Shown piece by piece: positions 5,692-25,500 of a stretch of 64,000 bases of DNA. A model generated the notes under the pieces. That model saw nothing but the letters and a program-made list of their open reading frames with translations, ran no database searches and had not been told where the DNA came from. A program made the translations under genes and the position numbers. Source of the DNA: Phycisphaeraceae bacterium (GTDB lineage: Bacteria > Planctomycetota > Phycisphaerae > Phycisphaerales > Phycisphaeraceae). Within the stretch, counting starts at the first letter, position 1; every line of letters starts with the position of its first letter. The DNA lies in the NCBI GenBank assembly GCA_963674705.1, contig OY771506.1:3072001-3136000 (forward strand). The letters run 5' to 3'.

Positions 5692-5698
5692 TCATCGA

Positions 5699-5720: not shown

Positions 5721-5733
5721 GTTCATATGCAAG

Positions 5734-5762
5734 GAGGCGGGCCGTATGGTCCGCCTCTTTCT
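5734..5762 (+). terminator. Intrinsic terminator of the DUF5131 gene
   Basis: GAGGCGGGCC-GTAT-GGTCCGCCTC followed by TTTCT. Confidence 0.6.
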
Positions 5763-5979
5763 ATCAAATATATTTAGCCATGTGCTATTTTGACCTCACT
5801 CTCAGCAAGAGCTGCAGCAACATAGTTGAAGGTTCGAAGAGGGGCTGGGTAGTTGGTAAGTTTCACGCAAACTGAATCCGAAAAAATATAATCGCACGAT
5901 ATGTCACACGCAGCTAGTTCCATTTGGGCTCTTGATCGTAATAACCTTTCGATAATCCAAGTCACCACCCGCTGAGCCG

Positions 5980-5993
5980 TCTATGAGCAAGCC
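5980..5993 (-). mobile_element. IS110/IS1111-type right-end sub-terminal repeat
   Basis: The minus strand reads TTGACAACGGCTTGCTCATAGA (an outward -35 plus the repeat). The 14-mer TCTATGAGCAAGCC recurs at 24563 ahead of an IS110 N-terminal fragment. Confidence 0.7.
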
Positions 5994-6182
5994 GTTGTCA
6001 AGCGGGCCTAATCTGTGGGCTGGATCCAACCATCTATCCGGCATCGATCTCATGGGTCGTGCCACTAGTCTGTATACGTAAACCCGCCTCATTCACCACA
6101 GCAAGGTCCAGATTGGCCTTACGGCCCAGCTCGAGGTCGGGTGTGATCTGCCCAGCAGACCCCTGTTCGGATCTATCCACCA
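5994..6182 (-). ncRNA. Candidate IS1111-type bridge/seek RNA region
   Basis: About 190 nt of non-coding sequence between the transposase stop and the right-end repeat. It contains GCCGGATAGATGGT, resembling the end junction ATAGACGGT, and a GGCC-GTAA-GGCC hairpin. Confidence 0.5.
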
Positions 6183-6620
6183 CTACGTCGCCCAACGCCA
6201 AGTCTCGCCGCTGCGCAGCATCGCCAGCATGCAACGAAGCAGCTTGTGTGCGGTTGCCACCACGGCGATCTTCTTGCGTTCCGGCTTCCCGTTCATGACA
6301 CGATTGAAGTAGTCACGCATCGCCGAGCACTTCCTGATGATTTGCCAAGTCGCTTCGACCAACAGCTTCCGGACTGTTGAGGGCCCCTGCCGAGTGATGT
6401 GACCCAGGCGATTGACCCCGGCGCTGGCGTCCTGCGAGGGCACCAACCCGAAGTAGGCGCCGATTCGATTGATGCACGCAAAACGTTTCGGGTCGTCGAT
6501 GTATGCCAGCACCGCCTCCGCGATACGCACACCCACCCCCGGGATCGTCGATAGTAACGCAATGCCGGGGTGGTGTTGCGCCAACCGGTCCAGGCGATCC
6601 GTCACGGTAGCCACGGTCAC
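6183..6620 (-). pseudogene. IS110-family transposase, C-terminal fragment
   Basis: TIPGVG, AYFGLVPSQDASAG, GHITRQGPSTVRKLLVEA and KKIAVVATAHKL motifs. The N-terminal DEDD domain is absent here. Confidence 0.88.
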
Positions 6621-6754
6621 GAGAGAGCCGCAGGCGTTGTAAGGCGTATCGAGCTTGTCACGCTTGGCGTTTTCCACGGCGCGGTACCAGTCTTTACCGC
6701 TGCGCAGGTGCATCAATTGATCGACGGACCAGCGGTCGTTGGGGCGGGCGCCGC

Positions 6755-7300
6755 GATCAGCACGTGATAACGAACCAGACCACCGAGCGTCCACACTTCC
6801 ACCGTGAAGAAGTCGGCTGCCGCGAGGTGTTCCCAGTGCGCCTTGAGGAAGGTCTCCCAGCTTCCGCGTTTGCTCCGCTCCGGCGACGGTTCGATCCCGT
6901 GCGCCTTGAGAATCCGGCCGATCGTTGTGTCGCTGACCCGGTGGCCCAGATTCAATAGTGCGCCTTCGATACGGTCGTAGCCCCAATCCTTGTTCTCCGT
7001 CGCCATGCGCACCAACAAGGCCCGGATCTCTTTCATCACACCTGGACGGCCTGGGCCGCGGTTCTTGCTGCCATCGTACTTCCTGGCGATCAAGCGTCGG
7101 TGCCAACGCAGCAGTGTGTCGGGCGTAACCAGCGTGCCCAGTTCTCGCAATACCTTGCGTCCCAACACCTTAGCTTTGACCGCAAGCCGCCGCCGCTGGT
7201 CATCGGTAAAGCGCAGGCGCTTCTCACCAAACTGCTCGCGAAGAACCCGGTTCTCTTCTTTAAGGTAGTCAATCACAGACTGCTGCTGGCGATTGATCCA
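6755..7300 (-). pseudogene. Truncated rve-type transposase/integrase (IS3/IS481-like), HTH region
   Basis: [20 protein letters not shown]...[11 protein letters not shown]...[10 protein letters not shown]...AADFFTVEV, broken before the DDE core is complete. Confidence 0.8.
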
Positions 7301-7430
7301 GACCTCTTCGATAAGGTCCAGAAACTCCTTAAGCTCAACGGTAGAACCGGCGGTGCGGAGGACCGCAACAAGTACGGGGCTATCCTGCGCGGGCTGCTGC
7401 GGTGCAAGACCTGCGGGACCGCGATGAACC
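7292..7430 (+). pseudogene. Large serine recombinase fragment (end of recombinase domain and start of Zn-ribbon)
   Basis: [13 protein letters not shown]...[21 protein letters not shown]. Confidence 0.65.
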
Positions 7431-7588
7431 GCGCGTTCGGTTTGCTGGCCAAGCGGTGGAAGAACTTGACGTCTTCCGGTATGCAGCGGTTGAAGTTATT
7501 ACCCGAATACCGGCTAGCTTGCGCGCGAATTCATAGTGTGATCCGTATTTCACCCGCGCCAGTAAGCCCCACATCTGTGGGACGTTGA

Positions 7589-9211
7589 TTATTCATCCGC
7601 AAGCCGGACCAATTCCGCTTCTACGGAGTCAAACATGTAACCGATCATCAGCGCCCGGCGTGACGGCCGGATCATGCCGGAATAGACGCGCTCGTACTCC
7701 TCGCGCAATGCCCGCATCTGTTCAAGAATCCGCGACGCCTGATCACGGTGTGCCTGCGGGTCAAAGCCATCTGTCCGGCTCAGCAGAATGAGCTGCGACG
7801 CCTCGGCCCGGTTAGTCAGGTTACGCGCGGCGAGTTCCCACAATTCCAGTCGGTATTCACCTTTCGAGGTAACCCGCATGAGCGATCTGATCTGATCTAG
7901 GCTTCTGGCGTAAGCCCGCCGCCGTGCACGGGCGGTCTCGATATGTTCATCGAACCCACCTTCTGCAATGATAGAGGCCAGTGTCTTCTCGACGTGGTCC
8001 GCGGGCACGGGCAGGCAAGCCTTGCCGATCCCAAGCGATTGCGTGTGGGTGAAAAGGCAAGGTTCAGACAAGCCCTCCACCGCTTCCCAGAAGCGGTCAT
8101 CTTCTAAGCCGTAGGCGCACTTCACGTACCGGTCTCGGAACTCGGCCATAGTAGACTCGGGGTTCTGTGACAGGAAGCCAACCGCGGCGATGTGGGCGTG
8201 CTGTAACTCCCAAGGGTGAAGGTGGACCGACCAGCTTGTCAGCACCGTGCCGCACAAGGCGGGTGTCTTCAGCCCCTTCGCAGCCGAGTCCCATGTATTG
8301 TGCAACTGGCGTTTGTGTCTGGGCGAAAAGACATTGTCGCCGTCGCAACTTGATCCGGGGCAGGTGACAACCTTAAAGCCCTTGTCGGCCAGGAAGTCGG
8401 CTGTATAGAACGTTTCCGGGTCGACGCCGGGCGCGTCTCCGTTTGGGAACAAATATTTGCCAAACAGATCAAGGTCTTTTGGTGTAAACTCGTTCCTGTT
8501 TCGCAAGCCCCGCTTGTCACCCCAGATATATACCCTGCCGTTGCCGCGCCAGACGTCATACATCCAGTCAAACAGCATCACATCACGCGATAGCTCATCG
8601 ATCGCACCGTTGTGGTGCAGCGCCATGTCCGCCCAGATGATGGGTGTTGCGCCGCGTTCGATCAGTGGCTCAGATATCGTGTTGACATGCTGAATGAATA
8701 TCTGTGAGACACTCAGGTCGTGCTTGTTCCTTGCACTCTGTTGCACATGGTCAAGTCGGCGGGCCTCGTCGCAGCCGATGTGGAAATAACGTACTTCGCC
8801 GAAAAGATCGAGGTACTCCGCTATCCAGTCGTGCAACAGCAGTACGACGGCCGGGTGCAGCGGGTTGTATTGCGTCGTGTCGTCAGGATGGGCGCGGAGG
8901 CCGGCGTACTTTTCGTGCCGCAGGACGTACTCCGCATGGCCGAGCGTCTGCAGCAGCGGAATGTTGTCGAGGCCTAATCCTTTGGCATGCTCGAGCAGCT
9001 TGCGGAATTCATCCTTGGTCAGCGCATCGGGCTGGTGTGCCTCCGGTATAGTCTGCCACTCGATGCCGCCTTCCAGCTCCCAGACGACCGTGTTGTAGCC
9101 CATCTCGGACAATGTTGTCAGCCAGGCCTCAAGATAGTCTGCACGGTACTGCGCCATATTCATGTCGATATGGAAACCGATGATACGCCTTTCAATCGTC
9201 TTTAGAACCAT
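7589..9211 (-). CDS. GH20-family hexosaminidase (HexD-like)
   Basis: IPLLQTLGHAEY, HIGCDEA catalytic motif, and IIWADM. Confidence 0.85.
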   Translation of the reverse strand: MVLKTIERRIIGFHIDMNMAQYRADYLEAWLTTLSEMGYNTVVWELEGGIEWQTIPEAHQPDALTKDEFRKLLEHAKGLGLDNIPLLQTLGHAEYVLRHEKYAGLRAHPDDTTQYNPLHPAVVLLLHDWIAEYLDLFGEVRYFHIGCDEARRLDHVQQSARNKHDLSVSQIFIQHVNTISEPLIERGATPIIWADMALHHNGAIDELSRDVMLFDWMYDVWRGNGRVYIWGDKRGLRNRNEFTPKDLDLFGKYLFPNGDAPGVDPETFYTADFLADKGFKVVTCPGSSCDGDNVFSPRHKRQLHNTWDSAAKGLKTPALCGTVLTSWSVHLHPWELQHAHIAAVGFLSQNPESTMAEFRDRYVKCAYGLEDDRFWEAVEGLSEPCLFTHTQSLGIGKACLPVPADHVEKTLASIIAEGGFDEHIETARARRRAYARSLDQIRSLMRVTSKGEYRLELWELAARNLTNRAEASQLILLSRTDGFDPQAHRDQASRILEQMRALREEYERVYSGMIRPSRRALMIGYMFDSVEAELVRLADE

Positions 9212-9667
9212 CAGTATCGACTCCGAATAAGCGTCGCTGGACCCGAAACCCGCCGGTCATAATGCCAAGGTGGCGCATCATAAACAGGCGTTTTCTGGCA
9301 TTAGCATAGCAAATCCCCCAATCACTCGACATACATGAGTCCCTGGTGTTGTTTAGCGTAAATCGTGGTCAGCCGCTGCAAATCGTTGCCGATGATAGCC
9401 CCGCAGCTTCAATGGGATTATCACGCGTCAAAGCGAAGTTATCGTGGCGGGTCTGAACGGGTAGAAGATGCTGATGACTTACGCGTATCGCCAGTCCGGT
9501 TCATCGAACCTGCTATCGACGGTGATGTTAGCGGTCGCATGCCGGCAGGCATAGGCGGGCTCCGCAGATGGTTGCCGTGTCACCGGCGCGTGGCGACAGG
9601 CAGTCAACGCGAGGGTACACGTTGCGACGGTGGACAGGATGAGGACTTTACCCAACATGAAACGGTC

Positions 9668-11857
9668 CTATGTCGTCGGTGGTATGGGCGTTTGGGTGGA
9701 CTGGCCAGCGCCGTTGGTAGGGGGCTCGGACAGCGGTGTATCGTCGTCGACCGGTCGGGTGACAATGCCGGTGTCGTTGAAATCGCGTTTGAGTGAACCG
9801 AGCGTCATGAAGAGCCTGCGTGTATCGATGATCCCGCCGATCAGGAACCAGATGATCGTGCCTATGCCCAGGACCAGCATCAGGCCCAATCGCCATTCCC
9901 AGTACATCACCCAGTCGTCCTCGGACATATGGCCCCAAAGGCCGTTACGGGCGCCGATGAACTGCACCGTGCCGACGATGAACACGATGAACCAGATGAT
10001 GGTCCAGGCGAGCTTGCCATAGTAGATGAACTTATCTCCGAGGCTGAACTCTCCGGAGGGCAGGATGGCGCGTAGGCCGGAGACAGGCTTGACCACTTCG
10101 CCGTCGTGATCGACCCTGATGGCGTAGCGACCGCGGTGCAACATGCGCTCCATGTTGAACGCCGGCCGCCTGGCAACCAGCCATGCCAGCAGCGAACAGG
10201 TCACGTACCCCACGATCGACAGGCACATGGCGAAGAAGTTGACCCACTGGCCATCCAGCGGGAACTCATCAGGGCCGACCTTCCAGTTGATCCCCCAGAC
10301 GCGCGTCGAGACGCCTTCAAGCCCTGTCCTAACCAGGTCCAGCAGCCAAGGGGCGTCCGTAACCATCCAGGGATACAGTGAGTCCTTCCATAATAGACGC
10401 AAAATCATCCCGCTGACTGCGACGACCCACCCGGTGGTCAGGGCGACCCACGCCCCGCTGGTCGAACCACGCTTCCAGTAGAGCCCGCCAATGATCAGCG
10501 AGCCCGCACCGCCGATGTAGATCGCGCCGGTGATGGCGAAGAACATGAAGATCAGGTCATTCTGCTCATACAGCAGGCTGAAGAAGAAGATGAAGACGGC
10601 TACAAAGAAGATCGAGAACCGCAACATCCGCATGTGTTGTTTGGGCGTGAAGGGCTTCTTGCGGAACGGCAGGATCACGTCCTGAATGAACATGGAGCCC
10701 CAAGAGTGCAGGTAGGTATCGTGCGTGGCGGTGTTGGCCGCCAACATGGTCGCGCACAGAAGCCCGATCATCCCGACCGGCAGTGCCTTGGACAGTACGA
10801 CAGGGACGGTCATCTGCTCGCGGATCTGCGGGTTCTCGATCCCGTCAAGCACACCCATCGCGTTGGCAACGACCTGCTCGTACCCGCTGTGGTGCATGAT
10901 GACGAAAGCCCCGATCGGCAGGAACATGGCCACGACGGTGAACACCAGCCCCCGCCACTCACCGAGGATCCCGGCCATCTTCGCCTCATGCGCCGTCCTG
11001 GCCGAGGCGTTGTAGCCCTGCGATCCCTGCCACGCCTTCCAACCGTAGACATAAGTGAAGGCGCCGATCAGGAAGAAGAAGATGTTGAATCCCTCGACCT
11101 TGGAGGTCTGGAACGGCTGAATCATCGAGGCGTCCTTGGGCGCTTCTCTGAGCGTGTCTATGATCGTCGACCAGTCGAACATCCAGAAGATCGCGCCCAG
11201 AATGACGATGAACACGATATTGGTGAAGACGCCCTGTATGAAGTCCGTGACCATAATGGCGATCTGACCACCGATGAACACGAAGAACAGCGCGATCCCC
11301 AGCATCACGACCATGACGCCCGCGTAGACCAGATCGATGTCGCGCCCCAGGATGTTCACGGGGTAGTGCGGGAACCCGCAGAAGTAGATCATGAACCGCG
11401 CGCCTACAGCGGGGAAGATCCCGAAGTTGATGATGCCCGCGAGCCAGCCGAGGATGCCGGCGTAGACCCGGATGCCCTTGCTGTAGCGCACCTCGAAAAA
11501 CTGCGCCATCGTCATCACCCGCGTTTCACGATATCGATAGATCACCCACCCCGACAGCGCAATGATCAATGCCAACGGCGTCATGATGAGGTGCCACCAG
11601 TCGGCAGTGAGGCCCGCCTTGTAGTACATCTCGAAGAAAGCGACGATACTGATCGACCCCAGCCCGGCGGTCCCTTGGGAGATGCACAACAGGTAACGCC
11701 CGGCGCAGCGATTGGCCGCCAGGAAGTCCGCGATGCTCTGGATGCACTTCTTCGTCGAAATCGCCGCCGCGACGATCCCCACCAGCAGGCCCAGGACGAT
11801 GCACCAGTCGATCCAGTGCATGTTTGAAGCGAATACGGCCAAGCTCGGGGTCGGCAT
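9668..11857 (-). CDS. Sodium:solute symporter (SSS family)
   Basis: Many TM helices, DFLAANR, TMAQFFEVRYS, GGQIAIMVTDFIQ and GGLYWKR motifs. Confidence 0.9.
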   Translation of the reverse strand: MPTPSLAVFASNMHWIDWCIVLGLLVGIVAAAISTKKCIQSIADFLAANRCAGRYLLCISQGTAGLGSISIVAFFEMYYKAGLTADWWHLIMTPLALIIALSGWVIYRYRETRVMTMAQFFEVRYSKGIRVYAGILGWLAGIINFGIFPAVGARFMIYFCGFPHYPVNILGRDIDLVYAGVMVVMLGIALFFVFIGGQIAIMVTDFIQGVFTNIVFIVILGAIFWMFDWSTIIDTLREAPKDASMIQPFQTSKVEGFNIFFFLIGAFTYVYGWKAWQGSQGYNASARTAHEAKMAGILGEWRGLVFTVVAMFLPIGAFVIMHHSGYEQVVANAMGVLDGIENPQIREQMTVPVVLSKALPVGMIGLLCATMLAANTATHDTYLHSWGSMFIQDVILPFRKKPFTPKQHMRMLRFSIFFVAVFIFFFSLLYEQNDLIFMFFAITGAIYIGGAGSLIIGGLYWKRGSTSGAWVALTTGWVVAVSGMILRLLWKDSLYPWMVTDAPWLLDLVRTGLEGVSTRVWGINWKVGPDEFPLDGQWVNFFAMCLSIVGYVTCSLLAWLVARRPAFNMERMLHRGRYAIRVDHDGEVVKPVSGLRAILPSGEFSLGDKFIYYGKLAWTIIWFIVFIVGTVQFIGARNGLWGHMSEDDWVMYWEWRLGLMLVLGIGTIIWFLIGGIIDTRRLFMTLGSLKRDFNDTGIVTRPVDDDTPLSEPPTNGAGQSTQTPIPPTT

Positions 11858-11918
11858 GCTGGTTGGATTCCTTCCTGGCGGCTATGCAGATAAGGATGAC
11901 CGGATGCGACCGATACGT

Positions 11919-13931
11919 TCAATCGGCGGCGTCGGAGTGCGTGTGACTCACGGTTCTGTCGGGGCTGGCCATGATCTGATGCTGCATGGCCCGATCCGGA
12001 TCTCGTCCATCCTGTGCAAAGAGTTTGGCCAGCCATAGGTGCGCCAGTTTGTAGCCCGGCGCCATCGACACGCAGGTCTCCAGTGCCTGGATCGCCTGCT
12101 CGGTCTTGCCGGTTTCCGCTAGTGCGACACCGAGGTTGTAATGAGCTCTAGGGAACTGGTGCGTCAGCCCGACCGCACGCAATGCGTAGTCCACCGCCTC
12201 ATCGTAGTGTTTTTTCACGATCGAAACACGGGCCAGCCCGTTGTATGCGACCGAGCTTTCGTCATCATTTCCCAGCAGCTTTTTATACGCACGCTCCGCA
12301 TCGTCCCACTTCGCAAGCTGGCCGTAGGCCTGTCCCAAGGCCCCGAGCAACGCCTCCATATCGGGCGCAATCGTCTCCGCCCGTTTGAGGTATTCAATCG
12401 CCTCCTCGGGCTTTTCCTGACGAAGCTTCACCTGCCCAAGCGTGGCTAGCAGGACGGCGTTAGTGGGGAATGTTTCAAGCAGCTCAAGGAGCAGCGGCTC
12501 ACACAGGTCCGTCTGGCCTGTCAGCAGGTAGCAGCGCGCCAGTTGGAATTTGTATGCGACGGCGTCCTCCTCGTCCTGGACCAGCAGCTCCTGCCAAATG
12601 GGAATCGCCTGGTCTGCTCGCTGGCTATCCGTCAGAGCCTTGGCAAGGTTAATCTTCTGGTCGAACATGGCGTGTTGAACGCTTTTCTGGACATCGTCGC
12701 TCGGTGCATCGATATAACCGAGTTCCACCAAGTGACGGATCGCTTCGGCTGAGGCGACCGGGTCTTCCCTACAGTCCTCCCCGTGCATCCCGTCATCGCC
12801 TTCGACCTGGTCCCAACTGATGATGTGCTCGGCCCGTATCTCCTTGTCGAAGATCTCCAGCCATGGTCGTCCGTCCATATCCGCACCGATAGGCAGGCCG
12901 AACAGCGACAGAATGGTCGGCGTGACGTCCAGCACCGTAGCGCCGTAGACGTGGGTGTCTTGCTTGATCCCGGGCCCCTTGGCGCAGACCACACCGAACG
13001 GCCGGTGCCAGCTCTCGGGGTCTTTGAACCCGTCGGAGTCACTTCGGCCCTTGCCGCTGTGGAAACCGTGGTCGGAAACCAAGATGACGGTGGTATCGTC
13101 CCCAGCGTAGCTTAACATCGCCTCGAGCATCATGTCGTGGTATCGGTAACAGCCGTTCATCACATCCTTGTACAGATCGGCGTCACGCTCGCTGACGCCT
13201 TCTATAGCGGGTGGATGGAAAGGCATGAAGTAGTGCCCCATCAGGTCGATCGCGTCGTAATAGACAGCCATGAAGTCCCACGGCTCGTTGTTCATCAGCC
13301 AGCACGCGGCGGCGTGAACCGTGCTGGCGCGTGCCAGCAACCCGGCGAATGTACCGAGTCGATCGTCCTTCGCCGTATCAATCTCCGCGGCGCGGGGGAT
13401 GAAAGGCAGGATGGCCATGGCGTCGAGCTGACGAGGGTCGACCCGCAGTTTCAGCAGGTCACCCGCCAGGCGTTCCGGGTGGAACATGCCGTCGCTCGAT
13501 GAGGGTGCTTGCTGATCCGGGCCCAGACGCGTCACGTAGCGTTCGGTCACGACCGCGCCGTTGATCGGCTCGGCGGGGTGGCTGGCGTACCATGTGACGA
13601 CGTTGGACTTCATCCCGCTCTGAGAAAGGATGTTCCACAGGGCCTTGGTCTTGCGGCTGGTGCTGCTGACCGGGCGGATGCCGCTGCCGTCAGGCAACGG
13701 TTCGGTGAAGCCGTAGATCCCGTGTTTGTCCGCACGTTTGCCCGTGGCGATCGAGTTCCAGAGCATCGGCGACAGGATCGGGCGGATCGTGGCGAGTTTG
13801 CCACTGACCCCATCCTTGATCATCTGTTCGAGTGTCGGCATCAGGCCCTGTTCGATCAACGGCCTGATCATGACCCAGTCGGCGGCGTCCCAGCCGATCA
13901 GAAGGACCTTCTTGGCTAACCGTTGTGTCAT
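11919..13931 (-). CDS. Alkaline phosphatase/phosphodiesterase superfamily protein with C-terminal TPRs
   Basis: IGWDAADW, LSPMLWNSIATG, DAIDLMGH and VSDHGF motifs, followed by a TPR array. Confidence 0.88.
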   Translation of the reverse strand: MTQRLAKKVLLIGWDAADWVMIRPLIEQGLMPTLEQMIKDGVSGKLATIRPILSPMLWNSIATGKRADKHGIYGFTEPLPDGSGIRPVSSTSRKTKALWNILSQSGMKSNVVTWYASHPAEPINGAVVTERYVTRLGPDQQAPSSSDGMFHPERLAGDLLKLRVDPRQLDAMAILPFIPRAAEIDTAKDDRLGTFAGLLARASTVHAAACWLMNNEPWDFMAVYYDAIDLMGHYFMPFHPPAIEGVSERDADLYKDVMNGCYRYHDMMLEAMLSYAGDDTTVILVSDHGFHSGKGRSDSDGFKDPESWHRPFGVVCAKGPGIKQDTHVYGATVLDVTPTILSLFGLPIGADMDGRPWLEIFDKEIRAEHIISWDQVEGDDGMHGEDCREDPVASAEAIRHLVELGYIDAPSDDVQKSVQHAMFDQKINLAKALTDSQRADQAIPIWQELLVQDEEDAVAYKFQLARCYLLTGQTDLCEPLLLELLETFPTNAVLLATLGQVKLRQEKPEEAIEYLKRAETIAPDMEALLGALGQAYGQLAKWDDAERAYKKLLGNDDESSVAYNGLARVSIVKKHYDEAVDYALRAVGLTHQFPRAHYNLGVALAETGKTEQAIQALETCVSMAPGYKLAHLWLAKLFAQDGRDPDRAMQHQIMASPDRTVSHTHSDAAD

Positions 13932-14038
13932 CTTGATCCCGATTTGGATTCTTCGGTATTAGTAAGTAAAGGGCCAGGCCCACGGTTACGCAAGCCCAGC
14001 CCGAGTGTTGAAACCGTCACAACAGCATCCGTGCCGGG

Positions 14039-14707: not shown

Positions 14708-14872
14708 CTGCTTTCTCCCATCAATAAGGTGTGAAAATAGTATTCGAACAAACACAATGGACAACATACATCGAAGTTAAACTGTTAGGTTCAAGACGTG
14801 CGTCCTCCTCTCTAACAACCCCCGTTTCTTGTGTGAATCACATGCTGTGTAGCGGGGTATTAGGCCGGCCGT

Positions 14873-14898
14873 AACCGCCCCCGGAGGTCGGGGCGGTT
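14873..14898 (-). terminator. Hairpin downstream of PEP-CTERM paralog 1
   Basis: AACCGCCCC...GGGGCGGTT stem; the U-tract is weak. Confidence 0.4.
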
Positions 14899-14918
14899 GC
14901 AGGCCGGATCGAGTTTGA

Positions 14919-15812: not shown

Positions 15813-15890
15813 ACTTTTCTCCTCAATGCAAAAAGGTAAGACGTGCGGTATTCACATAAAAAAACCAAAGATTCACAATGAATTGGTTTA

Positions 15891-17498
15891 TCAGATTGTG
15901 TAACTCGAGCCTGTTAGTTGATCAAGGCAATTAACACCGCAAACAAATGACGGCGCGTTGGGTTGTTTGGGTTGACTGGCCGGCGGATAATCTTGGGCGA
16001 GTAATTCAGACCTGACCTGGAAGTCATGGTAGTCGCGCATCTTGCGAGGTGACCAGAGGACTTCACTCAGAGCCAGTAACCTCGGCATAACCTGACGGAT
16101 CAGTTGCTCATATGTCTTGATGCATTCTGTCCAAACCGGTGCTTCCCCGCCCAGCACCAGGTCCGCCGCCACCGTCTCCAGGCCCTCGGGGACCGGCTCA
16201 AAGCCATACACTTTTTCGACCGGCAGCAGCGGCATCCAGTCGGGCTTACCAAGTCGGCTCTCTTCGCAACAGGGGTAGTCCATGTAAACATACTCATGGA
16301 ATGAGTTGATCGTCTGCCGTCCCAAACTCGCAGCCATTTCGCTCTGGCCCTCTAGCCATCCCTGAATGATCTGGCCGTCCGGCATCCCCGCCTTCTTGAG
16401 GTTGTCACCCCAGCCGATCGTTCGGACCTTTAGTTGTTCATGGACATAGTTAGTGATCTGCGAAGCAAACCAGAACTCCAGTTCGTCTTCACTCTTAAGT
16501 CCCAACTCATGCATACGTTTTTTACATGACGGGCACTGACTCCAGAAACCAGTCGGCCGTTCGTCTCCTCCGAGGTGGATGTACTGCGGTTCAAACACCT
16601 CCGCGACTTCGGCCAGGACATCCTTAAGAAAAGTGAATACCTCGTCACGTCCGGCACAGTACAAACGACGACCGCCGTCACGTGTATAGGCATTCAACCC
16701 GCCGGCCGCATCAACGGTTATGGATTTGCCGGAGCAAGACAGGCTCGGGATTGCATATAATGCCGAGTTGCAGTGGCCGGGCATATCGATCTCGGGGATC
16801 ACGATGATGTGACGATCATTCGCGTAAGCGACAATGTCACGGACCTGTTGTTGCGAATAGAAACCACCGTAGCGACTGTCGCCCTCACCACGCCAGGCGC
16901 CCACGGACGTCAGTCTTGGATACTTCCGGATCTCCATCCGCCAGGCTTGATCGTCAACGATGTGCCAGTGGAAGCGGTTGAATTTCAATGCAGCGATTCG
17001 GTCGATGATGCGTTTGATTTCCGAAACACTTTGCATATGCCTGGCGGAATCAAGCATAAAGCCGCGCCATGAGAACCTGGGCCGGTCATTGATGTGAACG
17101 CATGGCAGGTACCGAGATCCGCCATGATTGGCGTCACCCGTAGCGAGTTGGAACAAGGTCTGTACGCCGTAGAACGCACCGGCTGGACGCCGTGCCGTGA
17201 TGCTGACACAGTCCTCATTCACAGTCAGTTGATAGCCCTCGTCGCCAATATCACTCAGGCCGGGGTCCTGTATAAGCCGTATCGATCCGTCACTTTTCGA
17301 TCCCAGCGGGTTACCTGATCTGATGCACACATCGGCACCCGACTCGGAGTCGATCCAGTCGGCGAGATATCGTCCGAGCCAACGATACCGTTCGACATCA
17401 TCGACGATCTCCAGGTGTATCACCCTCACGGACGCCAGGGCGAACTGGCCTGGACAGCGCTTGACTTCCACGGGTTTGGGGATCACAGCAAGCCGCAT
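15891..17498 (-). CDS. GH20 beta-N-acetylhexosaminidase
   Basis: DRPRFSWRGFMLDSARH, DDQAWR, PEIDMPGH, HLGGDE and WTE motifs. Confidence 0.95.
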   Translation of the reverse strand: MRLAVIPKPVEVKRCPGQFALASVRVIHLEIVDDVERYRWLGRYLADWIDSESGADVCIRSGNPLGSKSDGSIRLIQDPGLSDIGDEGYQLTVNEDCVSITARRPAGAFYGVQTLFQLATGDANHGGSRYLPCVHINDRPRFSWRGFMLDSARHMQSVSEIKRIIDRIAALKFNRFHWHIVDDQAWRMEIRKYPRLTSVGAWRGEGDSRYGGFYSQQQVRDIVAYANDRHIIVIPEIDMPGHCNSALYAIPSLSCSGKSITVDAAGGLNAYTRDGGRRLYCAGRDEVFTFLKDVLAEVAEVFEPQYIHLGGDERPTGFWSQCPSCKKRMHELGLKSEDELEFWFASQITNYVHEQLKVRTIGWGDNLKKAGMPDGQIIQGWLEGQSEMAASLGRQTINSFHEYVYMDYPCCEESRLGKPDWMPLLPVEKVYGFEPVPEGLETVAADLVLGGEAPVWTECIKTYEQLIRQVMPRLLALSEVLWSPRKMRDYHDFQVRSELLAQDYPPASQPKQPNAPSFVCGVNCLDQLTGSSYTI

Positions 17499-17504
17499 GA
17501 AACA

Positions 17505-18641
17505 TTACTCCGATTTAATCCCGGACAGCACACCGTCCTCAACACTCGACAGCGCGCGGTCAAGCACGGTAAATGCTGCTCCCATCGCAACGCCGTGATC
17601 CCCCAGTTCCGAGGCCAATACAGGGATATGCCGATCGGGTACCGGTACGAGACCCCTATTCAATTCCGATTCAATTAGGTCGAACAACCTTTTGTTACAG
17701 AATGCAGTATTACTGCCGATGATCACGGCTTCCGGATCGAACAAGTCGCAAAGAATGGCGAGCGTGCGACCCGTTCCGATGGCAAGTTTGTGCAGACCCT
17801 CAGTCATGTCTGCTTCGGCCTGTCCCATAAGGAGGACTTCCTCGGCACTGTAACGCTCGACTGACACGATCTCACGCACCAGCTGATGGACTTCACCCGC
17901 GGCGAAGTGGGCGCCACGGTCAAGCTTGCCCCCCACGTAATGCGTTGAGCCGACGCTTATGAAATCGTAAAAACCGCCTACCGCACTGATATGCAGAAGG
18001 ATATAAATAAAGTTCTTCAACGGAACACCGCAGCCGATGCGGCCTTCGGCAACGGCCGCAAAATTGACGTTATTATCCACACGGACATGGGTGTTGAACT
18101 GCTTAGCCAATAAGCTTCCTATCGAATACTTATGTAGCTTGAGCATGGACGAGAACACAACCTGGCCGGTACGCGTGTCCACAATACCGGGGATGCCAAC
18201 ACCCACACCCAGCATCTTGCCTATCGCCTTGTCACGACGCGAACCCCAATCGGTGATGCGATCGCCTAGCGTGCCGAGGATATGGGGCAGATCGTGATCG
18301 ATCTCGAAGTAGTCGTGTTCAAGCACGTTTCCGGCCATGTCCAGGTATGTGATAAAGCCCCAGTCGGTACTGATACCGAGTCCGGCGACCCATCCTCTGC
18401 TGGGATTGACTTCCAGAAGGACCTGTTTTTTGCCGACAGTATTGGACGCACGCTTACCCATGTTGCGGATAATGTTGGATTCCAACAAGTCGCGGACGAT
18501 ATAGGTCATTGTGGACCCGTGCAGACCGGTCATCTCGGTCAATTGCCGGCGTGACAGTGGTCCGTTACGCAGGAGTTGAAGAATCTGCCGACGGCTATGA
18601 AGTGCCGCATTAGTCAGGTTGGATTTGTCGGGTGGCGTCAT
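17505..18641 (-). CDS. ROK-family transcriptional regulator (NagC/XylR-like)
   Basis: N-terminal HTH (LSRRQLTEMTGL), GVGVGIPGIVD, VDNNVN and AGEVH motifs. Confidence 0.9.
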   Translation of the reverse strand: MTPPDKSNLTNAALHSRRQILQLLRNGPLSRRQLTEMTGLHGSTMTYIVRDLLESNIIRNMGKRASNTVGKKQVLLEVNPSRGWVAGLGISTDWGFITYLDMAGNVLEHDYFEIDHDLPHILGTLGDRITDWGSRRDKAIGKMLGVGVGIPGIVDTRTGQVVFSSMLKLHKYSIGSLLAKQFNTHVRVDNNVNFAAVAEGRIGCGVPLKNFIYILLHISAVGGFYDFISVGSTHYVGGKLDRGAHFAAGEVHQLVREIVSVERYSAEEVLLMGQAEADMTEGLHKLAIGTGRTLAILCDLFDPEAVIIGSNTAFCNKRLFDLIESELNRGLVPVPDRHIPVLASELGDHGVAMGAAFTVLDRALSSVEDGVLSGIKSE

Positions 18642-18759
18642 GATCTAATTATTAAAGCAGGCAAAATTACAGTTCACAAAATGTTCCATCGGTCTCTAAC
18701 GTATGAGCAACTGGATGATGTTCATATCACCCGCCATCGCGTAGATCGCACGGCGGTTG

Positions 18760-19584
18760 TTACGGCCTCGGGTCGATCAGGCCGTCCCAACGGATGATGT
18801 CGTAATCGATATCACTTGGTGACTTGCTGTCAACGTGGCTGTCCAGATAGAGAATGTTGCCAGTGCCCCTGTGACGTTCGGGATCGGGGGTGATGCCATC
18901 CAATTCGCCCCCCATCTTTGTCTTGGAGGCGTTATACCACCAAAAAGCATGCTTGCCGTTTTCGGCCGGGGTACTATCTATGTCCATTTTGAGCCGGTGG
19001 CCGTTACTGTCCCAGAACAATGTATAGTTGCTGGCGCCCTTGACTGCGTCGATCTTATCACCCGCCCAAAGCTCGATCGCTTCAAAGCCGCCGCCATACT
19101 GCCCGCCACTGGCAGTAAAGATTGTTTGCCACTGGCCGGTGGTTCTTGGGCTGGCATCCGTATGGCCGGGCCCGAATTCGTTAATGTCGTTGTTGAGCAT
19201 GTAGCTGCCACCGGCCTCGATCGTTTTGACTGCGGGAAGGTCACCTCCGAAAGCGTCCGTGATGGGCTCGGCATCATTGGGGCAGATCAGGGTTGAATCG
19301 GCAAGGTTGCCATTCTCACCTGGTGAGGCAATCTCCGAAGGATACCGATCCGTGAGCAGTCGTGACCAACGCTTGGCCATGGCTGTCCTGACAACAGCCC
19401 GCCGGTCGCTGTCGCCCAACCAAAGCTCATGGGCAATCCCGACCTGCTTGAGCTTGGCCTTACAGACCATGTTCTTGGCACTCTCGCGTGCGGCCCCCAA
19501 AGCAGGCAGCAGGATGCCAACCAACAGTGCAATGATGGATATGACGACCAGTAACTCTATTAATGTAAATGCTTTGCGTGACAT
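18760..19584 (-). CDS. Prepilin-type N-terminal cleavage/methylation protein (DUF1559-like)
   Basis: [15 protein letters not shown] class III signal; C-terminal H-X9-DS variant ([14 protein letters not shown]). Confidence 0.9.
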
Positions 19585-19686
19585 TTCGGGACACTCCCTG
19601 GTTAATCCTGCCTAGTTCCGTATGTAACCTGACTGACATGGGCTGATATGGTCGGTTCACTCATAGTGCCAAGCCATCTGCATACA

Positions 19687-19774
19687 AGATTAATCGCGAC
19701 CATTCTGCCTGTCAATATTAATTAGTTAATATTAATAAATATTTATTGACGGGAGTGAACGGCCTCACTAAAGT
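19687..19774. promoter_or_regulatory. Back-to-back sigma70 promoters with two AT-rich palindromic operators
   Basis: Minus strand: TTGACA(19715-10)-N17-TAATCT. Plus strand: TTGACG(19746)-N17-TAAAGT(19769). Palindromes at 19714-19733 and 19734-19747. Confidence 0.7.
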
Positions 19775-19781
19775 ACACGCA

Positions 19782-20828
19782 ATGAAAGACATACTTCTAT
19801 TGGGGCTGACCTGCATGCTCATGGTGTCTTGTCAATCTTCTGTATCTGAACGCCAGATCCCGGGAGAATTATCACAAACCATTGTTATTGATGAAATTAA
19901 AGGTGAAACAACCCCATCGGGCATACAGGGAATGTGGGTCTGGAGACCCGACGAGATCAACACCGACCAGGCCCAGGACGAACTCTTGAACTTCTGTGAG
20001 CGATTCGGTTTCAACCGGTTACTCGTGCAGATTCACCAGGTGGATGATCGGTCGCCTGTCTACACGATCAAGTATCCGCGGGAATTGACACGGCTGGTCG
20101 CCCAAGCCACGGAGCGCGGCATCAAGGTTGAGGCGCTGGATGGCGCTAACGACATGGCTTTCGCGGCGAACCAACTCCGATCACTGGAGGGCCTCGATGC
20201 ACTTATTGATCTGAACCAATCGATGCCCGAAGGCAAGCGGTTCATCGGCGTCCACTACGACATCGAGCCCTATACCAGCGACTTCTGGAAGTCCTCTCAG
20301 CACAACCGCGATATTGCGATGTTGGACCTTCTTACATTCTACGTCATGGCAAGGCAGAAGCTCGATGATCGTGGTTCCGGGATGCTTTTGGCGTGCGATA
20401 TTCCCATGTGGTACGACACAAAGACCTCCCCGGACGACAACTGCATCGTCACGTTCAACGGCCAAACCAAGAATCTGCACGAGCATATCCAGGATCTTTG
20501 CGACTACGTCGGTATTATGTCGTACCGACAGAATGCGGTGGGCCCCAACTCGGCATCCGAACATATCGCCGGTGAACTGGCCTACGCGGAGATGATCGGC
20601 AAACAGCTGTGCGCAGCGCTGGAGACGGTCGAACTTAAGGATACGCCCGAGATCAGTTTTTACGGGAAGTCACCGGATGAGTTCTGGCGGCAGGTCACGC
20701 TGCTAGAAGAACAACATGCCCAGAGGCCGGGCTACGCGGGCACGCTATTGCATTGCTACCGAGGCCTACGCAATCTGCTGTTGGATCGCCCTATTCGCCC
20801 TGACGGTTCACCAGCTCATGCCCCATGA
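19782..20828 (+). CDS. Putative lipoprotein, glycoside hydrolase-like TIM-barrel of unknown family
   Basis: Lipobox-like LMVSC; GMWVW, GVHYDIEPY, DYVGIMSYR and ALET motifs. Confidence 0.6.
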   Translation: MKDILLLGLTCMLMVSCQSSVSERQIPGELSQTIVIDEIKGETTPSGIQGMWVWRPDEINTDQAQDELLNFCERFGFNRLLVQIHQVDDRSPVYTIKYPRELTRLVAQATERGIKVEALDGANDMAFAANQLRSLEGLDALIDLNQSMPEGKRFIGVHYDIEPYTSDFWKSSQHNRDIAMLDLLTFYVMARQKLDDRGSGMLLACDIPMWYDTKTSPDDNCIVTFNGQTKNLHEHIQDLCDYVGIMSYRQNAVGPNSASEHIAGELAYAEMIGKQLCAALETVELKDTPEISFYGKSPDEFWRQVTLLEEQHAQRPGYAGTLLHCYRGLRNLLLDRPIRPDGSPAHAP

Positions 20829-20949
20829 AATATCGTCGTCAGACGGAACATTAACCACGCGGGCAACCATTTGTCGTTAAGAAAGCCCGGCAGTGTTGTC
20901 GGACAGAGGTCGATAAACAAGTATCCGGTGGATAGGAGACCACGTAGCC

Positions 20950-21822
20950 ATGCGTTTGACAATACCAATCATGATTGCAATCACCACCACAGCCTTGATA
21001 AACCTTAGCCTTCTCGTGTCTTGCGCGCAGGGTGGTGAACCACAGTATCAGCGGTCGCTGGAGTTCGCGGGCCGGCCCTGGCTTGTCAGAAACAGCGATC
21101 AGTTGGTGGGTCCGGGCCCGAACTTCTTCTCGGATGAACCCAGCCAGGTCTGGGTGGATGATCAGGGGCATTTGCACATGTCGATCAAGCCACAGGACGG
21201 CCAATGGCGGTGCTCTCAGCTGCGATCGGACTGGCCTGTGGGGTACGGCGTCTATGAATTCCATTTGGCCGGCGGCGCTGATCAATTCGATCCCAACGTC
21301 GTGATCGGCCTGTACACGTGGGACAGCAACACATCCAAGACCGACGCCAACAGCGAGATCGACATCGAGATCACGCGTTGGAGTCGCACTGATGAACAAG
21401 CCCCGAACCTTTACTACACCGTGCATCCGGGCTGGGGTCCCGACGGCAAGCATGAGGAACGGGCTGACAAGTTACTGATGTCGCTCGATGGCGAATCGTC
21501 TACCCACATTATCACCTGGCATCCGGACCGGATCACCTGTGCAAGCTACCGGGGGGACTTGCCGGATCCGGACAATCTTATTGCCGAGTGGGTCTTCGAC
21601 GACACCAACCCACCCCGCGTCAAGAAGATCTCTGAGGACCAGACCACCGATCCTGTTTTGATTCCCAGACCAAGCCCGACGACTCACATCCAGATGAACC
21701 TTTGGCTGCATAGTGTGCCGCACGTGCAAGGCGTTCCGCCGACCGATGGCAAGCCCGTGGAAATGATCGTGACCGGGTTCCGGTATACCCCAGCGGAGCA
21801 GGCGGAAATCCCCGAACCGTGA
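20950..21822 (+). CDS. GH16-like secreted glycoside hydrolase
   Basis: EIDIE catalytic motif, GYGVYEF, NVVIGLYTW and MNLW; signal/lipobox LLVSC. Confidence 0.75.
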   Translation: MRLTIPIMIAITTTALINLSLLVSCAQGGEPQYQRSLEFAGRPWLVRNSDQLVGPGPNFFSDEPSQVWVDDQGHLHMSIKPQDGQWRCSQLRSDWPVGYGVYEFHLAGGADQFDPNVVIGLYTWDSNTSKTDANSEIDIEITRWSRTDEQAPNLYYTVHPGWGPDGKHEERADKLLMSLDGESSTHIITWHPDRITCASYRGDLPDPDNLIAEWVFDDTNPPRVKKISEDQTTDPVLIPRPSPTTHIQMNLWLHSVPHVQGVPPTDGKPVEMIVTGFRYTPAEQAEIPEP

Positions 21823-22176
21823 AGTGTCCGTCCTACTAGTGGTGTTCGTCAGAAATCTTGGAACATAACCGTTGATCGAATTCCCGGGATATTGAGCGTA
21901 GTCTGCATTAATGTGCCATGTAATGCTAGGATTTCGAGTACCCGGATAACTTACACACCGTTAGTCGGGGTATACTAGCTGATGCTGAAAGAAGCCGGTA
22001 GCGTAGCCCGGCAGAGGTCGTGTTGGCAATATTGGTTCACAGAAGTACTGATTACTCTCGCTTGACGAGGCCACGTAAGACCTACAGCGACTTGGAAAGC
22101 TTGGCCCGATGATGCCCAGAGACTCACGCTCCATACGGACCAGCTCAAGGTCAAGACCAGAAGCAGCGGAATTCAC

Positions 22177-23091
22177 ATGGACTCTGGTATAAAACGTGAG
22201 GGCAGGTCAATCGTTGCGGAAGGACTGATCAAACGGTTCGGCGACCTGATCGCGGTTGACGGAGTCTCGTTTGAACTCCGTGCGGGTGAGACCTTCGGCC
22301 TGCTCGGTCCCAACGGCGCCGGCAAGACGACCACCATCCATATGCTCATCGGGGCGCTCGATCCCGACGGCGGGCGCGTCGTTTTCGACGGGCAGGACAT
22401 GTCCCTCGCCATCCGCCGGCGCATCGGCGTCGCGCCGCAGAGCCTCGCCCTCTACGAGAACATGAGCGGCCAGGGCAACCTCCGATTCTTTGGCTCCCTC
22501 TACGGCCTGGCAGGCTCGCGGCTCAGCGAGCGAGTCGACCTGGCGCTTGAACTCGCCGGTCTCGTCGACCGACGACACGACAGGGTCGCAACCTACTCCG
22601 GCGGCATGAAGCGACGGCTCAATCTCGCCTGTGCCATGGTCCATGGCCCCGACGTCATCTTCCTCGACGAGCCTACCGTCGGCGTCGACCCGCAGTCACG
22701 CAACCACCTCTTCGACGCCATCGAGCGCCTCAAGGACAACGGGCTCACCGTCCTCTATACCACGCACTACATGGAGGAGGCACAGCGACTCTGCGATCGC
22801 GTCGCTATCATGGATCACGGCAGGATCCTCTCGCTCGACACCGTCGACGCACTCATCGACGCTCACGGCGGTGGCTGGGTTATCCGCGCGGAACTCGCGG
22901 ACATCCCCCCGGACACCGCATCGATCCCTGGCACGCTCGACGGAACCACCCTGCGCATCGAGACCGCCGATCCCTCTCGGACACTCGGCGACCTCGCCGC
23001 CTCCGGCGTTCACCTTACCGATCTCTCGCTCGAGCGACCCGACCTCGAGCGCGTCTTTCTCTCACTCACCGGACGAACACTAAGGGATTGA
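22177..23091 (+). CDS. ABC-2 type exporter ATP-binding subunit
   Basis: GPNGAGKTT, YSGGMKRR, FLDEPT and TTHYMEEA motifs. Confidence 0.95.
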   Translation: MDSGIKREGRSIVAEGLIKRFGDLIAVDGVSFELRAGETFGLLGPNGAGKTTTIHMLIGALDPDGGRVVFDGQDMSLAIRRRIGVAPQSLALYENMSGQGNLRFFGSLYGLAGSRLSERVDLALELAGLVDRRHDRVATYSGGMKRRLNLACAMVHGPDVIFLDEPTVGVDPQSRNHLFDAIERLKDNGLTVLYTTHYMEEAQRLCDRVAIMDHGRILSLDTVDALIDAHGGGWVIRAELADIPPDTASIPGTLDGTTLRIETADPSRTLGDLAASGVHLTDLSLERPDLERVFLSLTGRTLRD

Positions 23092-23097
23092 ACCTCG

Positions 23098-24471
23098 ATG
23101 CTTGCCAATGCCTTTCGCATCGCCGTCAAGGATCTCTCGCTCCTCTGGGGCGACAAGATGGGGCTCTTCTTCGTCCTCGCCTTCCCGCTCATCATGGCGC
23201 TCTTTTTCGGCTCCATCTTTGGCGGCGGCGGCGGCGGAACTACCGAGATGGGCATCGCCGTCGTCGACCTCGACGGCTCCGAGGCCTCGCACGACTTCGC
23301 ACGCCTCCTTGACGAGTCCAATTCGCTGTGGGTTTGGTCACCCACCGAACCTGACACCGACGTACCTGTCGAGGTCACCGAGGAACTCGCGCGCCGAAAG
23401 GTCCGCGCCGGCGAGCTTACCGCTTATATAGTCCTGCCGGAGGGCTATGGGGGCGATGGCCCGTTCGCCGGGTTCGGCGCGGAGATCCGCGTCGGCATCG
23501 ATCCCTCCCGCCAAGCCGAGGCCGGATACCTCCGGGGCCTGCTCATGGAGGCCTCGTTCCGACGTTTCCAGGACCTGTTCACCAACCCCGATGCCATGGC
23601 CGAAGAAATCGACAAACTCATCACAGACGTCGACGAGTGGAACGTCGATCCCGCCCAGAAGACGGTCTTCAAGGGTTTCTTCGGCGCGTGGAAGGACTTC
23701 TTGCAGAAAGTCGATCCCGATGTCTATGGCCAGAGCCCCGGCAACGCCGGGGCGGCCGATGACCAGCTACTGGATGCAGGAACGGGTGCGGCAGAAGATG
23801 AAAACGCGGTGAGGGGAGGCTTCAGTCCCGTCACCATCGAGATCGAGGAAGTCATTCGTGAGGGCAGTAACCCGCGCTCCGCCTTCGAGATCAGCTTCCC
23901 GCAGGCGATGATGTGGGCGGTCATCGGCACATGCGCCACATTCGCAGTCACGCTTGTCCGCGAGCGCAAGGAGGGGACGCTCCTCCGTCTCCGTGTCGCG
24001 CCCCATCCGGCCGGCGTCATCCTCGCCGGCAAGGCGTTCGCGTGCTTCAGCACCTGCGTGGGCTCCCTCGCACTGCTCACCGTCATCGGGCACTTGGTCT
24101 TTGGTATGCGCATCGAAAGCTACGGGCTCTATGCGCTCGGCATCTGCTGTACCGGCGTCTGCTTCGCCGGCATCATGATGGCTATCACCACGCTCGGTAC
24201 GACGGAGGAGGCCGTCGGTGGGGCCGGGTGGGGCGTCCTCATCATCGCCGCCATGCTCGGTGGCGGGATGGTCCCGCTCTTGGTCATGCCGCAGTGGATG
24301 ACCTCACTTAGCATGCTCAGCCCGGTCCGTTGGGCGGTCTTCTCACTGGAGGGCGCCGTCTGGCGCGGCCTCACGTTCGAGCAACTCCTCCCCGCCTACG
24401 CCGTGTTGCTCGGCGTCGGCATCGTCGCCTTCGCCCTCGGTGTCTGGGTCTTCCGTTGGCGCGAGGGCTGA
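23098..24471 (+). CDS. ABC-2 type exporter permease
   Basis: N-terminal TM, large extracytoplasmic loop, ERKEGTLLRL and five C-terminal TMs. Confidence 0.92.
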   Translation: MLANAFRIAVKDLSLLWGDKMGLFFVLAFPLIMALFFGSIFGGGGGGTTEMGIAVVDLDGSEASHDFARLLDESNSLWVWSPTEPDTDVPVEVTEELARRKVRAGELTAYIVLPEGYGGDGPFAGFGAEIRVGIDPSRQAEAGYLRGLLMEASFRRFQDLFTNPDAMAEEIDKLITDVDEWNVDPAQKTVFKGFFGAWKDFLQKVDPDVYGQSPGNAGAADDQLLDAGTGAAEDENAVRGGFSPVTIEIEEVIREGSNPRSAFEISFPQAMMWAVIGTCATFAVTLVRERKEGTLLRLRVAPHPAGVILAGKAFACFSTCVGSLALLTVIGHLVFGMRIESYGLYALGICCTGVCFAGIMMAITTLGTTEEAVGGAGWGVLIIAAMLGGGMVPLLVMPQWMTSLSMLSPVRWAVFSLEGAVWRGLTFEQLLPAYAVLLGVGIVAFALGVWVFRWREG

Positions 24472-24562
24472 GCGCTCCGTCAACATTCTGAATATCTGTT
24501 GGGGTGTGATGGCCCACCAGCTTGTTGTCGCATGATCGAGGCATCTTCAACGGTGTACTGAA

Positions 24563-24731
24563 TCTATGAGCAAGCCTCCCGGCAAGGTACGCTGATCTTT
24601 TGATCAACGACCTCTTATCAAGGAGACTTGTCATGGAATACGTTGGCATGGATGTTCATCTACATACTTCAACGCTGCATATTCTGGATGGACAACCCAC
24701 GGCGCAATGTGCGCCGCAGGCGGGCGATTAG
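24563..24731 (+). mobile_element. IS110/IS1111-type left end with N-terminal transposase stub
   Basis: TCTATGAGCAAGCC at 24563, AGGAG RBS, then ATG 24633 encoding MEYVGMDVHLHTSTLHILD (IS110 YxGxDVH motif) with a stop at 24731. Confidence 0.75.
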
Positions 24732-24823
24732 TTTGAGATGATGTTGGTGGCCCACCTATGCAGCGAACACACACGCGCTGGCCTGGCCTTTTACACAGCG
24801 TAGCGCCAATATCATACCGATGC

Positions 24824-25438: not shown

Positions 25439-25500
25439 GGGGACGCTCCTTAAAGAGACCGTCCCCATGCCGGAGACGGTCGTTGTTGAAAACGACCGCC
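25436..25500 (-). promoter_or_regulatory. Four-segment alternative-hairpin leader sequestering the start codon
   Basis: Three 10-bp pairings, A:B, B:C and C:D. B:C excludes the other two, and D contains the AUG. Confidence 0.65.

Follow-up and report, generated by a model that had tools for sequence, protein, structure and literature searches.

Two dead stubs of one type of IS1111 element around glycan-use genes in a Phycisphaeraceae genomic island, and the IS481-like repeat that their flanks rebuild

The stretch of DNA analysed here, called the window, comprises 64,000 nucleotides (C1:3072001-3136000) of the genome of a Phycisphaeraceae bacterium (assembly GCA_963674705.1; G000 below), which is a single 5.54-Mb contig and is 96.6% complete. 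Positions are those of the window unless G000 is given. Two stubs of an insertion sequence (IS) of the IS110 family lie in the window 18.6 kb apart, in opposite orientation and with their ends on opposite strands, around sugar-use genes of a genomic island. On the minus strand, positions 6183..6615 hold the C-terminal piece of the recombinase, residues ~195-338, without a start; it matched PF02371 (the C-terminal Tnp domain, E 2e-19) and positions 201-342 of NF033542. A search with this piece returned 120 homologues, headed by three close proteins (P0003-P0005, at 83-85%), after which the match drops to 71%, and tblastn aligned residues 195-338 of P0004 to positions 6617-6186. On the plus strand, positions 24633..24689 carry the first 19 codons of a recombinase gene, followed by unrelated DNA. 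The N-terminus could be parsed in 107 of the 120 homologues (P0005 has no start), and when this stub was compared with residues 1-19 of P0004, the protein that matches the C-terminal piece at 83%, 18 of 19 residues agreed, the next best of the 107 reaching 14/19. An earlier reading of the letters (the sequence-only reading) had taken the two stubs for halves of one IS110 element, with a C-terminal transposase on the minus strand and a left end, ribosome-binding site and N-terminal stub on the plus strand. Our results bear out this pairing, as to element type, and both placements.

What lies between the two pieces of the gene has disappeared. Residues 20-194 of the recombinase were found nowhere in the 5.54-Mb genome by tblastn, and no other piece of this element type was present in it besides the two stubs. 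The DEDD RuvC domain (PF01548), which is present in the intact relatives P0003-P0005, had 0 matches in G000, and the only genome-wide match to PF02371 was the piece at 6183..6615; the recombinase of intact relatives has 338-339 amino acids. Both stubs come from a single type of IS1111-group element, whose right and left ends they preserve in a dead state, and the locus is a remnant that holds no active member of the IS110 family. The named relatives of the transposase came from Planctomycetota in 10 of 11 loci. DNA of the P0004-type element was not found in the viral contigs or plasmids searched, the closest plasmid places showing <60% identity.

Both stubs carry a 14-bp motif, at 5980 and at 24563, on the plus strand at both places. 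The 14-mer alone is not beyond chance, as 139 different 14-mers occur at least twice on the plus strand of the window; it is, in agreement with the shared end motif of the sequence-only reading, the sub-terminal repeat of a subgroup of IS1111 elements. A pattern scan of metagenomes revealed at least 120 loci of this subgroup, 80 of them with flanks, of which 15 were not right-end matches, 27 were too short and 38 were informative. Among the informative loci, the motif flanked a full transposase gene in 22, which were intact, while 13 held a right end alone, 2 a right end and transposase without a recognised left end, and 1 an internal deletion. Intact relatives have TG plus five bases and then a repeat of 11-12 bp at the left, and three bases after the repeat at the right. 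Extensions of 7 bp (left) and 3 bp (right) were found in 25 of 25 parsed intact elements, a count that is partly circular because the parser required the left-end shape, and extensions of the same lengths outside the sub-terminal repeats are described for IS1111 elements in the available text of PMC11187229. In one locus (L084, 545-590), an intact left end follows immediately on a decayed right end, with 3+7 bases between the repeats, which is a relic of an end-to-end junction within a contig.

Because of this 7+3 rule of the intact relatives, we place the true ends of the element at 5980 and 24559. The right end (5980..5993, minus strand) thus consists of an 11-bp sub-terminal repeat (5983-5993) and a 3-bp terminal extension (5980-5982), and the left end (24559..24632, plus strand) of a 7-bp extension (24559-24565), an 11-bp repeat (24566-24576) and a ribosome-binding site. 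The two 11-bp repeats match perfectly; inverted sub-terminal repeats of about 11-13 bp are characteristic of the IS1111 group. An outward-facing -35 hexamer at 5996..6001 (minus strand), invariant in 20 of 20 aligned right ends, is predicted to be part of a circle-junction promoter, a role that we propose by analogy with PMC11187229. Two other ends were seen in the genome. At G000:C1:2656217-2656400, an unpaired left end with ~32 codons of a different IS1111 subtype stands at the edge of a 75-bp repeat that has dozens of genome copies, and a right end without a partner lies at G000:C1:2027150-2027341; its guide region looks intact, and its right guide agrees with its own flank at 7/8 positions.

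The non-coding region from the stop codon to the right end measures 203 bp and could be aligned with 19 other right ends. A bridge (or seek) RNA with two internal-loop hairpins is predicted at 6020..6150 on the minus strand, on the basis of a consensus fold of 14 sequences, in which 15 of 24 pairs showed two-sided changes, and of guide-flank matches. The single-sequence fold of the region was not more stable than shuffles (z -0.91), Rfam had no match for it, and a promoter and terminator scan yielded nothing usable. The guides, all on the minus strand, were assigned from guide-flank matches to 6130-6121 (right target), 6101-6091 (left target) and 6037-6031 (left donor); a right donor guide was not identified by eye in the 20 aligned right ends. 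In the first loop, the right-target guide lies on the 5' strand and the left-target guide on the 3' strand. This is the IS1111 order, the rule given in the text of PMC11187229 at hand being that the top-strand complement (right guide) precedes the bottom-strand match (left guide). The right guide of the window agrees with its flank at 7 of 8 positions; in intact elements the agreement is 5-8 of 8 (n=18, L032 left out), and 1.4% of 280 cross-pairs reach at least 7. Across intact elements the guides vary with the flanks, that is, with the targets. We therefore predict that the right end keeps a two-loop bridge RNA with readable guides. Multi-copy relatives were observed to insert at the edges of palindromic repeats (L151, L156, L159, L162 and L165 in genome G644; L153, L158, L161, L164 and L166 in genome G360), and L165 is a case of natural reprogramming, in which a change of the left guide is accompanied by a change of the left flank.

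The flanks of the two ends belong to another kind of mobile element. Next to the right end, positions 5790..5979 (minus strand) comprise the left terminal repeat of an IS481-like element without its first five bases, together with ~190 bp of the 5' part of that element, truncated; this flank showed DNA similarity to G000:2012584 and G000:2113557 and scored 20.1 bits on a profile of the repeat without its tip. Before the left end, positions 24505..24553 (plus strand; 17.6 bits) are the outer 49 bp of a decayed IS481-like right end, which aligns with G000:1864674 and G000:2014067, and they are followed by five bases (24554..24558, plus strand) that match the tip of an IS481-like repeat and recur at G000:1864674 and G000:3594388. 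The paralogous target element is 1489 bp long and encodes an IS481/IS3-like transposase (G000:2012679-2013926). This gene scored 135.5 bits on NF033577 (cut-off 224) and 113.9 on the IS3 family NF033516 (cut-off 160), and we named the family IS481-like because both scores lie below the cut-offs.

IS481 terminal repeats start with TGT. With the tip-less profile, 14 genome sites scored at least 20 bits and 11 of them start with TGT, as compared with 1.3% of random positions. At the site at 5979, the end of the IS stands where the tip of the repeat is expected, and a TGT tip for this repeat is provided, in exact register, by the five bases that precede the left end. On a profile derived from 9 repeats that lie outside the window, the join in the correct register scored 27.1 bits, which 11 positions of the genome attain. 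The outer flanks of the two stubs thus complement each other to form a single IS481-like terminal repeat with its TGT tip. Both guides fit the repeat at G000:4866005 perfectly (5/5 and 7/7), and the 12 listed repeats score 3-5 and 5-7. From these matches we predict that the IS1111-type element was aimed at the tips of IS481-like elements. No close intact relative of the target element from which the tip could be read was found in 200 genomes of the order. In 400 genomes of the phylum, 12 pattern matches were considered as relatives of the target, but none has the TGT tip and they have the appearance of chance matches. Likewise set aside was a repeat-like site without a tip, 623 bp to the left of the window, its score being among those of chance hits. 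A nested arrangement of two tips like that of the window was seen at G000:3594388/3594361, and IS481-like ends in this genome often hold the end of another element 27-200 bp inside them (G000:C1:2048306, 2085845, 2113552 and 3594388), which marks them as insertion hot spots.

The sequence-only reading had also taken an ACGG shared by the outer edges for the core at which the flanks rejoin into one open frame. Both places do contain ACGG, and an open frame does result from the join, but ACGG is not the core of the element: the left end at 24559 lies five bases to the right of the left-hand ACGG, which forms the last four bases of the decayed IS481-like end, and the A of the right-hand ACGG is the last base of the element. 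We rejected this join, which scores 15.2 bits, since it is in the wrong register and 8 bp short of the join in the register of the family. The rejoined frame did not prove meaningful either. Its 67-residue right part has no real homologue, with two weak matches among 1.84 billion representatives, both to long repetitive proteins, and no usable Atlas match, and its last 34 residues gave no BLASTP alignment with the IS481-like protein, so that the link to that element is one of DNA. At the DNA level, the 67-residue frame is the end and 5' part of the IS481-like element. The notion that the flanks were once contiguous is favoured, for a different reason than the one first given: the join rebuilds an IS481-like terminal repeat and not a gene.

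The whole locus lies within an island of 30.9 kb at a tRNA-Leu(CAG) gene (G000:C1:3067287-3098293; window -4713 to 26293). The island starts at the 3' end of the tRNA gene, 4.6 kb to the left of the window, and is closed by attR, a 14-bp direct repeat of that end at 26280..26293 (plus strand). Its genes include a tyrosine recombinase and a P4-family primase. In the closest relative, a genome of the same genus (G004, backbone identity 91-96%), the attachment site is empty and the island absent. At G000:3.56-3.61 Mb, a related recombinase (44%) and a sigma-like gene (95%) point to another island of similar construction. Genes for a methyltransferase, an FAD oxidoreductase and a type III polyketide synthase lie consecutively at 1476-4460 as further cargo, a similar trio occurring in genome G022. 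Outside the right end stands a DUF5131 gene (4831..5691, plus strand; PF07505), and beyond the left stub an island backbone gene with weak sigma-factor/HTH similarity (24824-25522) which, with its surroundings (24755..25644, minus strand), matches G000:3610958-3611845 at 88% and has weak NCBIfam matches. The GH20 and DUF5131 neighbours in G004 were dismissed as a witness of synteny, as they belong to another locus.

Between the C-terminal piece and the cargo, positions 6616-7440 are taken up by a row of three gene fragments (136-551 bp) that are truncated on both sides, in no case at the terminus of an element. The one at 6616..6753 (minus strand, 138 bp) is internal to a gene with a paralog at G000:1960333-1961898 (79% in DNA, 85% in protein). 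The next (6754..7304, minus strand) is an internal fragment of an IS481/IS3-like (rve) transposase gene, at 89-91% to two genome copies and below the cut-off of NF033577, and the last (7305..7440, plus strand) is internal to a large serine recombinase gene, with matches in 56 of 401 genomes, which in three loci read lie inside recombinase genes of 526-532 amino acids. The idea that the serine-recombinase fragment and the sigma-like gene are halves of one element was dropped after they were found together in 0 of 15 loci, and a recognisable recombinase within 1.5 kb was seen by eye in 0 of 5 sigma-like loci from other genomes. According to Pfam, the glycan-use cargo (7589..21822) encodes GH20, a sodium:solute symporter, a phosphodiesterase-TPR protein, two PEP-CTERM proteins, a second GH20, a ROK regulator, a protein with an N-methylation motif, an unknown protein and a GH16-like protein, the GH16 match being weak; an ABC-2 type ATPase and permease (22177..24471, plus strand; Pfam) follow, their closest pairs being in other families of the order. 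The description of this cargo as a polysaccharide utilisation locus holds for the two GH20 genes, the symporter, ROK and the ABC-2 pair, but Pfam found no match to the SusC/SusD families among the cargo. Part of it (9454-20780) is collinear in G004, G007 and G009 at other loci, with 64-80% identity. The two PEP-CTERM genes (14039-15812) are tandem paralogs, 74-78% alike with a spacing of 1096 bp, and the short repeat of this tandem also occurs at 28577-28741 and at many places in related genomes.

From the fit of the flanks, we consider it rather probable that one target site was split by an inversion of the sugar-use and ABC genes. Flipping 5980-24558 would make the target whole on one side and would line up C-terminus, right end, left end and N-terminus without interruption on the other, and it would also merge the two debris zones of gene fragments into one. 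Three routes could lead there, and in our own judgement, which is not a computed result, the largest share of the probability goes to a bridge-guided flip, a somewhat smaller one to a normal insertion broken inside the gene, and the smallest to a homologous flip in which two full copies in inverted orientation recombined and eroded afterwards. On the first route, which we put forward only tentatively, the bridge recombinase itself would have acted on a target 18.6 kb away, flipped the glycan-use cargo inside the island and then decayed, leaving a fossil of a natural RNA-programmed rearrangement. An IS481-like element would have been located 49 bp inside the end of an older element of this kind, and ~18 kb away, in the debris beside the sigma-like gene, the right and left ends of the IS1111 element would have stood side by side as a donor junction, derived from a tandem copy or an integrated circle; that a decayed right end can adjoin an intact left end is seen in L084. 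Recombinase and bridge RNA would then have joined this donor to the programmed target on the opposite strand, so that the interval inverted and two hybrid junctions were left, and deletions of residues 20-194 and of every other gene copy would have locked the state. For IS621, donor and target on opposite strands give inversion, according to the accessible part of PMC11208160. The sequence-only reading had proposed a single insertion broken by an inversion plus a deletion, which is possible, but a bridge-guided flip, a homologous flip or two remnants would give the same ends. That an ordinary insertion was disrupted afterwards within the recombinase gene, by an inversion of unrelated origin with loss of ~525 bp, is in our view unlikely: a single copy would suffice, and this would explain the complementary, non-overlapping pieces and the rebuilt target, yet no mechanism of inversion can be discerned, the inner breakpoints both lie away from element ends, and the sequence past the N-terminal stub does not continue the gene fragment at 6616-6753. 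The junction sequences show nothing to tell the three inversion routes apart.

An origin without any inversion is less probable and still a serious contender, namely that two copies inserted independently, in opposite orientation, into two IS481-like repeats and that each lost its right-hand part (in window coordinates). Single-end remnants are common, with a right end only in 13 of the 38 informative loci and the unpaired ends at 2656217 and 2027341 in G000; the guides select TGT-tipped repeats anywhere, the island is rich in doubly truncated fragments, and the IS481-like pieces at 5979 and 24505 flank the cargo as direct repeats, the layout of a composite transposon. However, this scenario requires a third IS481-like element reduced to five bases and two hits in one island although the 12 listed repeats are unoccupied, and its deletions must have left complementary, non-overlapping pieces. 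In addition, a count by eye gave 12 differences over 25 positions between the two IS481-like repeats of the window, which speaks against flanking copies that were identical. Besides the frequency of single ends, several points weigh against a single split target. A second insertion with the same guide into another repeat would also leave a TGT tip, so the fit is no proof of one target, and P0003, equally close in the C-terminal part (85%), fits the N-terminal stub at just 13/19. The left guide of the window agrees with its flank at 3 of 5 positions, with both core-proximal positions mismatched, one of them as a G-T wobble; in intact elements the count is 4-5 of 5 in 14/20, 3 in 3/20 and 2 in 3/20 (L084, L093 and three without recognisable RNA left out), and ~9% of cross-pairs reach 3, although a left-guide match is in principle blind to the question of one or two insertions. 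The sigma-like gene, a second potential witness of the inversion, lies near serine-recombinase loci in 0 of 15, and DUF5131 stands upstream, on the same strand as in the present orientation, in 1 of these 15. The island was found in no other genome and its earlier orientation is not readable from any outgroup; with no close copy of the ABC pair or of the left island part in 30 relatives and an empty site in G004, the synteny comparison that the sequence-only reading had proposed brought no decision.

That the junctions were made by misassembly is extremely improbable. Short-read contigs of two runs (X1 and X2) and of a second sample of the same study (X3) were used for this check, and since X1 and X2 may be the source sample, they bear on the assembly and not on the biology. 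Contigs covering 5400-6824 (X2), 22310-24869 (X2), 23728-25114 (X1) and 24510-24869 (X3) showed 0 differences and one covering 7256-11326 (X1) showed 1 difference, so that the junctions at 5980, 6615, 6753, 7304, 24558 and 24690, including those near 6.7 and 24.7 kb at which the sequence-only reading had urged caution, each lie inside one contig with 0-1 differences, 24558 and 24690 also in the second sample. The span 6825-7255 is not bridged by any single contig among those listed and lies inside a repeat with 89-91% identical copies elsewhere, but the local copy is 9-11% diverged from its paralogs. The contig depth over 7256-13776 was 10.2 in X2, against ~6 on either side, and another strain or organism of the sample may have this part too. 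A live phase switch, in which a recombinase acting in trans still flips the segment, is very improbable too. The RNA region is intact, and the two hybrid junctions, on opposite strands, face so that recombination would invert the segment rather than excise it, a geometry that the sequence-only reading had described correctly. However, the genome holds no DEDD domain and a single PF02371 piece, the hybrid-junction reaction is the inefficient direction for IS621 in what is available of PMC13626964, and the whole cargo would flip with its own promoters, no gene being obviously switched. Neither a strand-change joint nor the joint of a rejoined empty site was present among the 15 of 21 joints listed in the three contig sets, which as short-read contigs drop rare variants. 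Because no intact IS110 recombinase is left in G000, we predict that the segment is locked and is not a switch.

The locus is thus a real, well-resolved fossil of a known kind of element, for which the sequence-only reading had the pairing right and the core wrong; what is left of it in the island today is dead and gives no hint of a function. Through it, a widespread subgroup of IS1111 elements (at least 120 loci) can be defined whose guides are readable and differ with the target across loci, so that natural bridge RNAs with a TG-type core can be drawn from this subgroup. Should the recombinase itself have made the inversion, the inversion reaction of genome engineering would also reshape natural islands and could be read later from two hybrid junctions; guide RNA, target halves and donor halves would all be legible in one window, and the guide would define a new natural target class. 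For both ideas, the guide source and the natural inversion, precedent in general form has been published.

Features of IS1111 elements, the targeting of terminal repeats of other elements and inversions at IS110 loci are already in print; what is new here is the target class, IS481-like terminal repeats, and the chance that the recombinase itself flipped the cargo. In the literature searched, mostly by titles and the starts of abstracts, no IS1111 element aimed at IS481-like ends and no split inverted remnant was found. As far as the available text of PMC11187229 and PMC11208160 goes, the element resembles the IS1111 group (ISEc11, ISKpn4, ISPa11) in its 11-bp sub-terminal repeats, its 7-bp and 3-bp extensions, the long downstream non-coding region, the right guide placed before the left, the -35 box in the right end and, in its intact relatives, the recombinase of 338-339 amino acids. 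In that group the ends lie in direct orientation around one gene, whereas the element of the window is broken and its ends are inverted; the subgroup also differs in its mostly planctomycetal relatives and in having no close plasmid relative. Judging by titles in the references of PMC11208160, IS4321/IS5075 target the terminal repeats of Tn21 and IS1383 those of IS1384, and they are thus likewise IS1111-type elements aimed at the terminal repeat of another mobile element, but the target in the window is a TGT-tipped IS481-like repeat. Modular circles have been described for ISPpu9 in the portion of the source available. The accessible part of bioRxiv 10.64898/2026.08.14.744561 reports cargo, tandem duplications and inversions at IS110 loci in nature, with 229 of 350 candidate inversions validated; the study filtered out truncated remnants and its expanded elements have direct ends, unlike the inverted ends without recombinase in the window. 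In IS30, an abutted end-to-end chromosomal junction reacts with a target to yield inversions or deletions, according to the available text of PMC9333248, and such junction-driven inversion is alike, although IS30 uses DDE chemistry without a guide RNA. The Piv invertase systems, as named in PMC11187229 and PMC11208160, share an IS110-related recombinase and an invertible segment with the locus, but they keep an intact enzyme and switch, whereas the locus described here has lost its enzyme.

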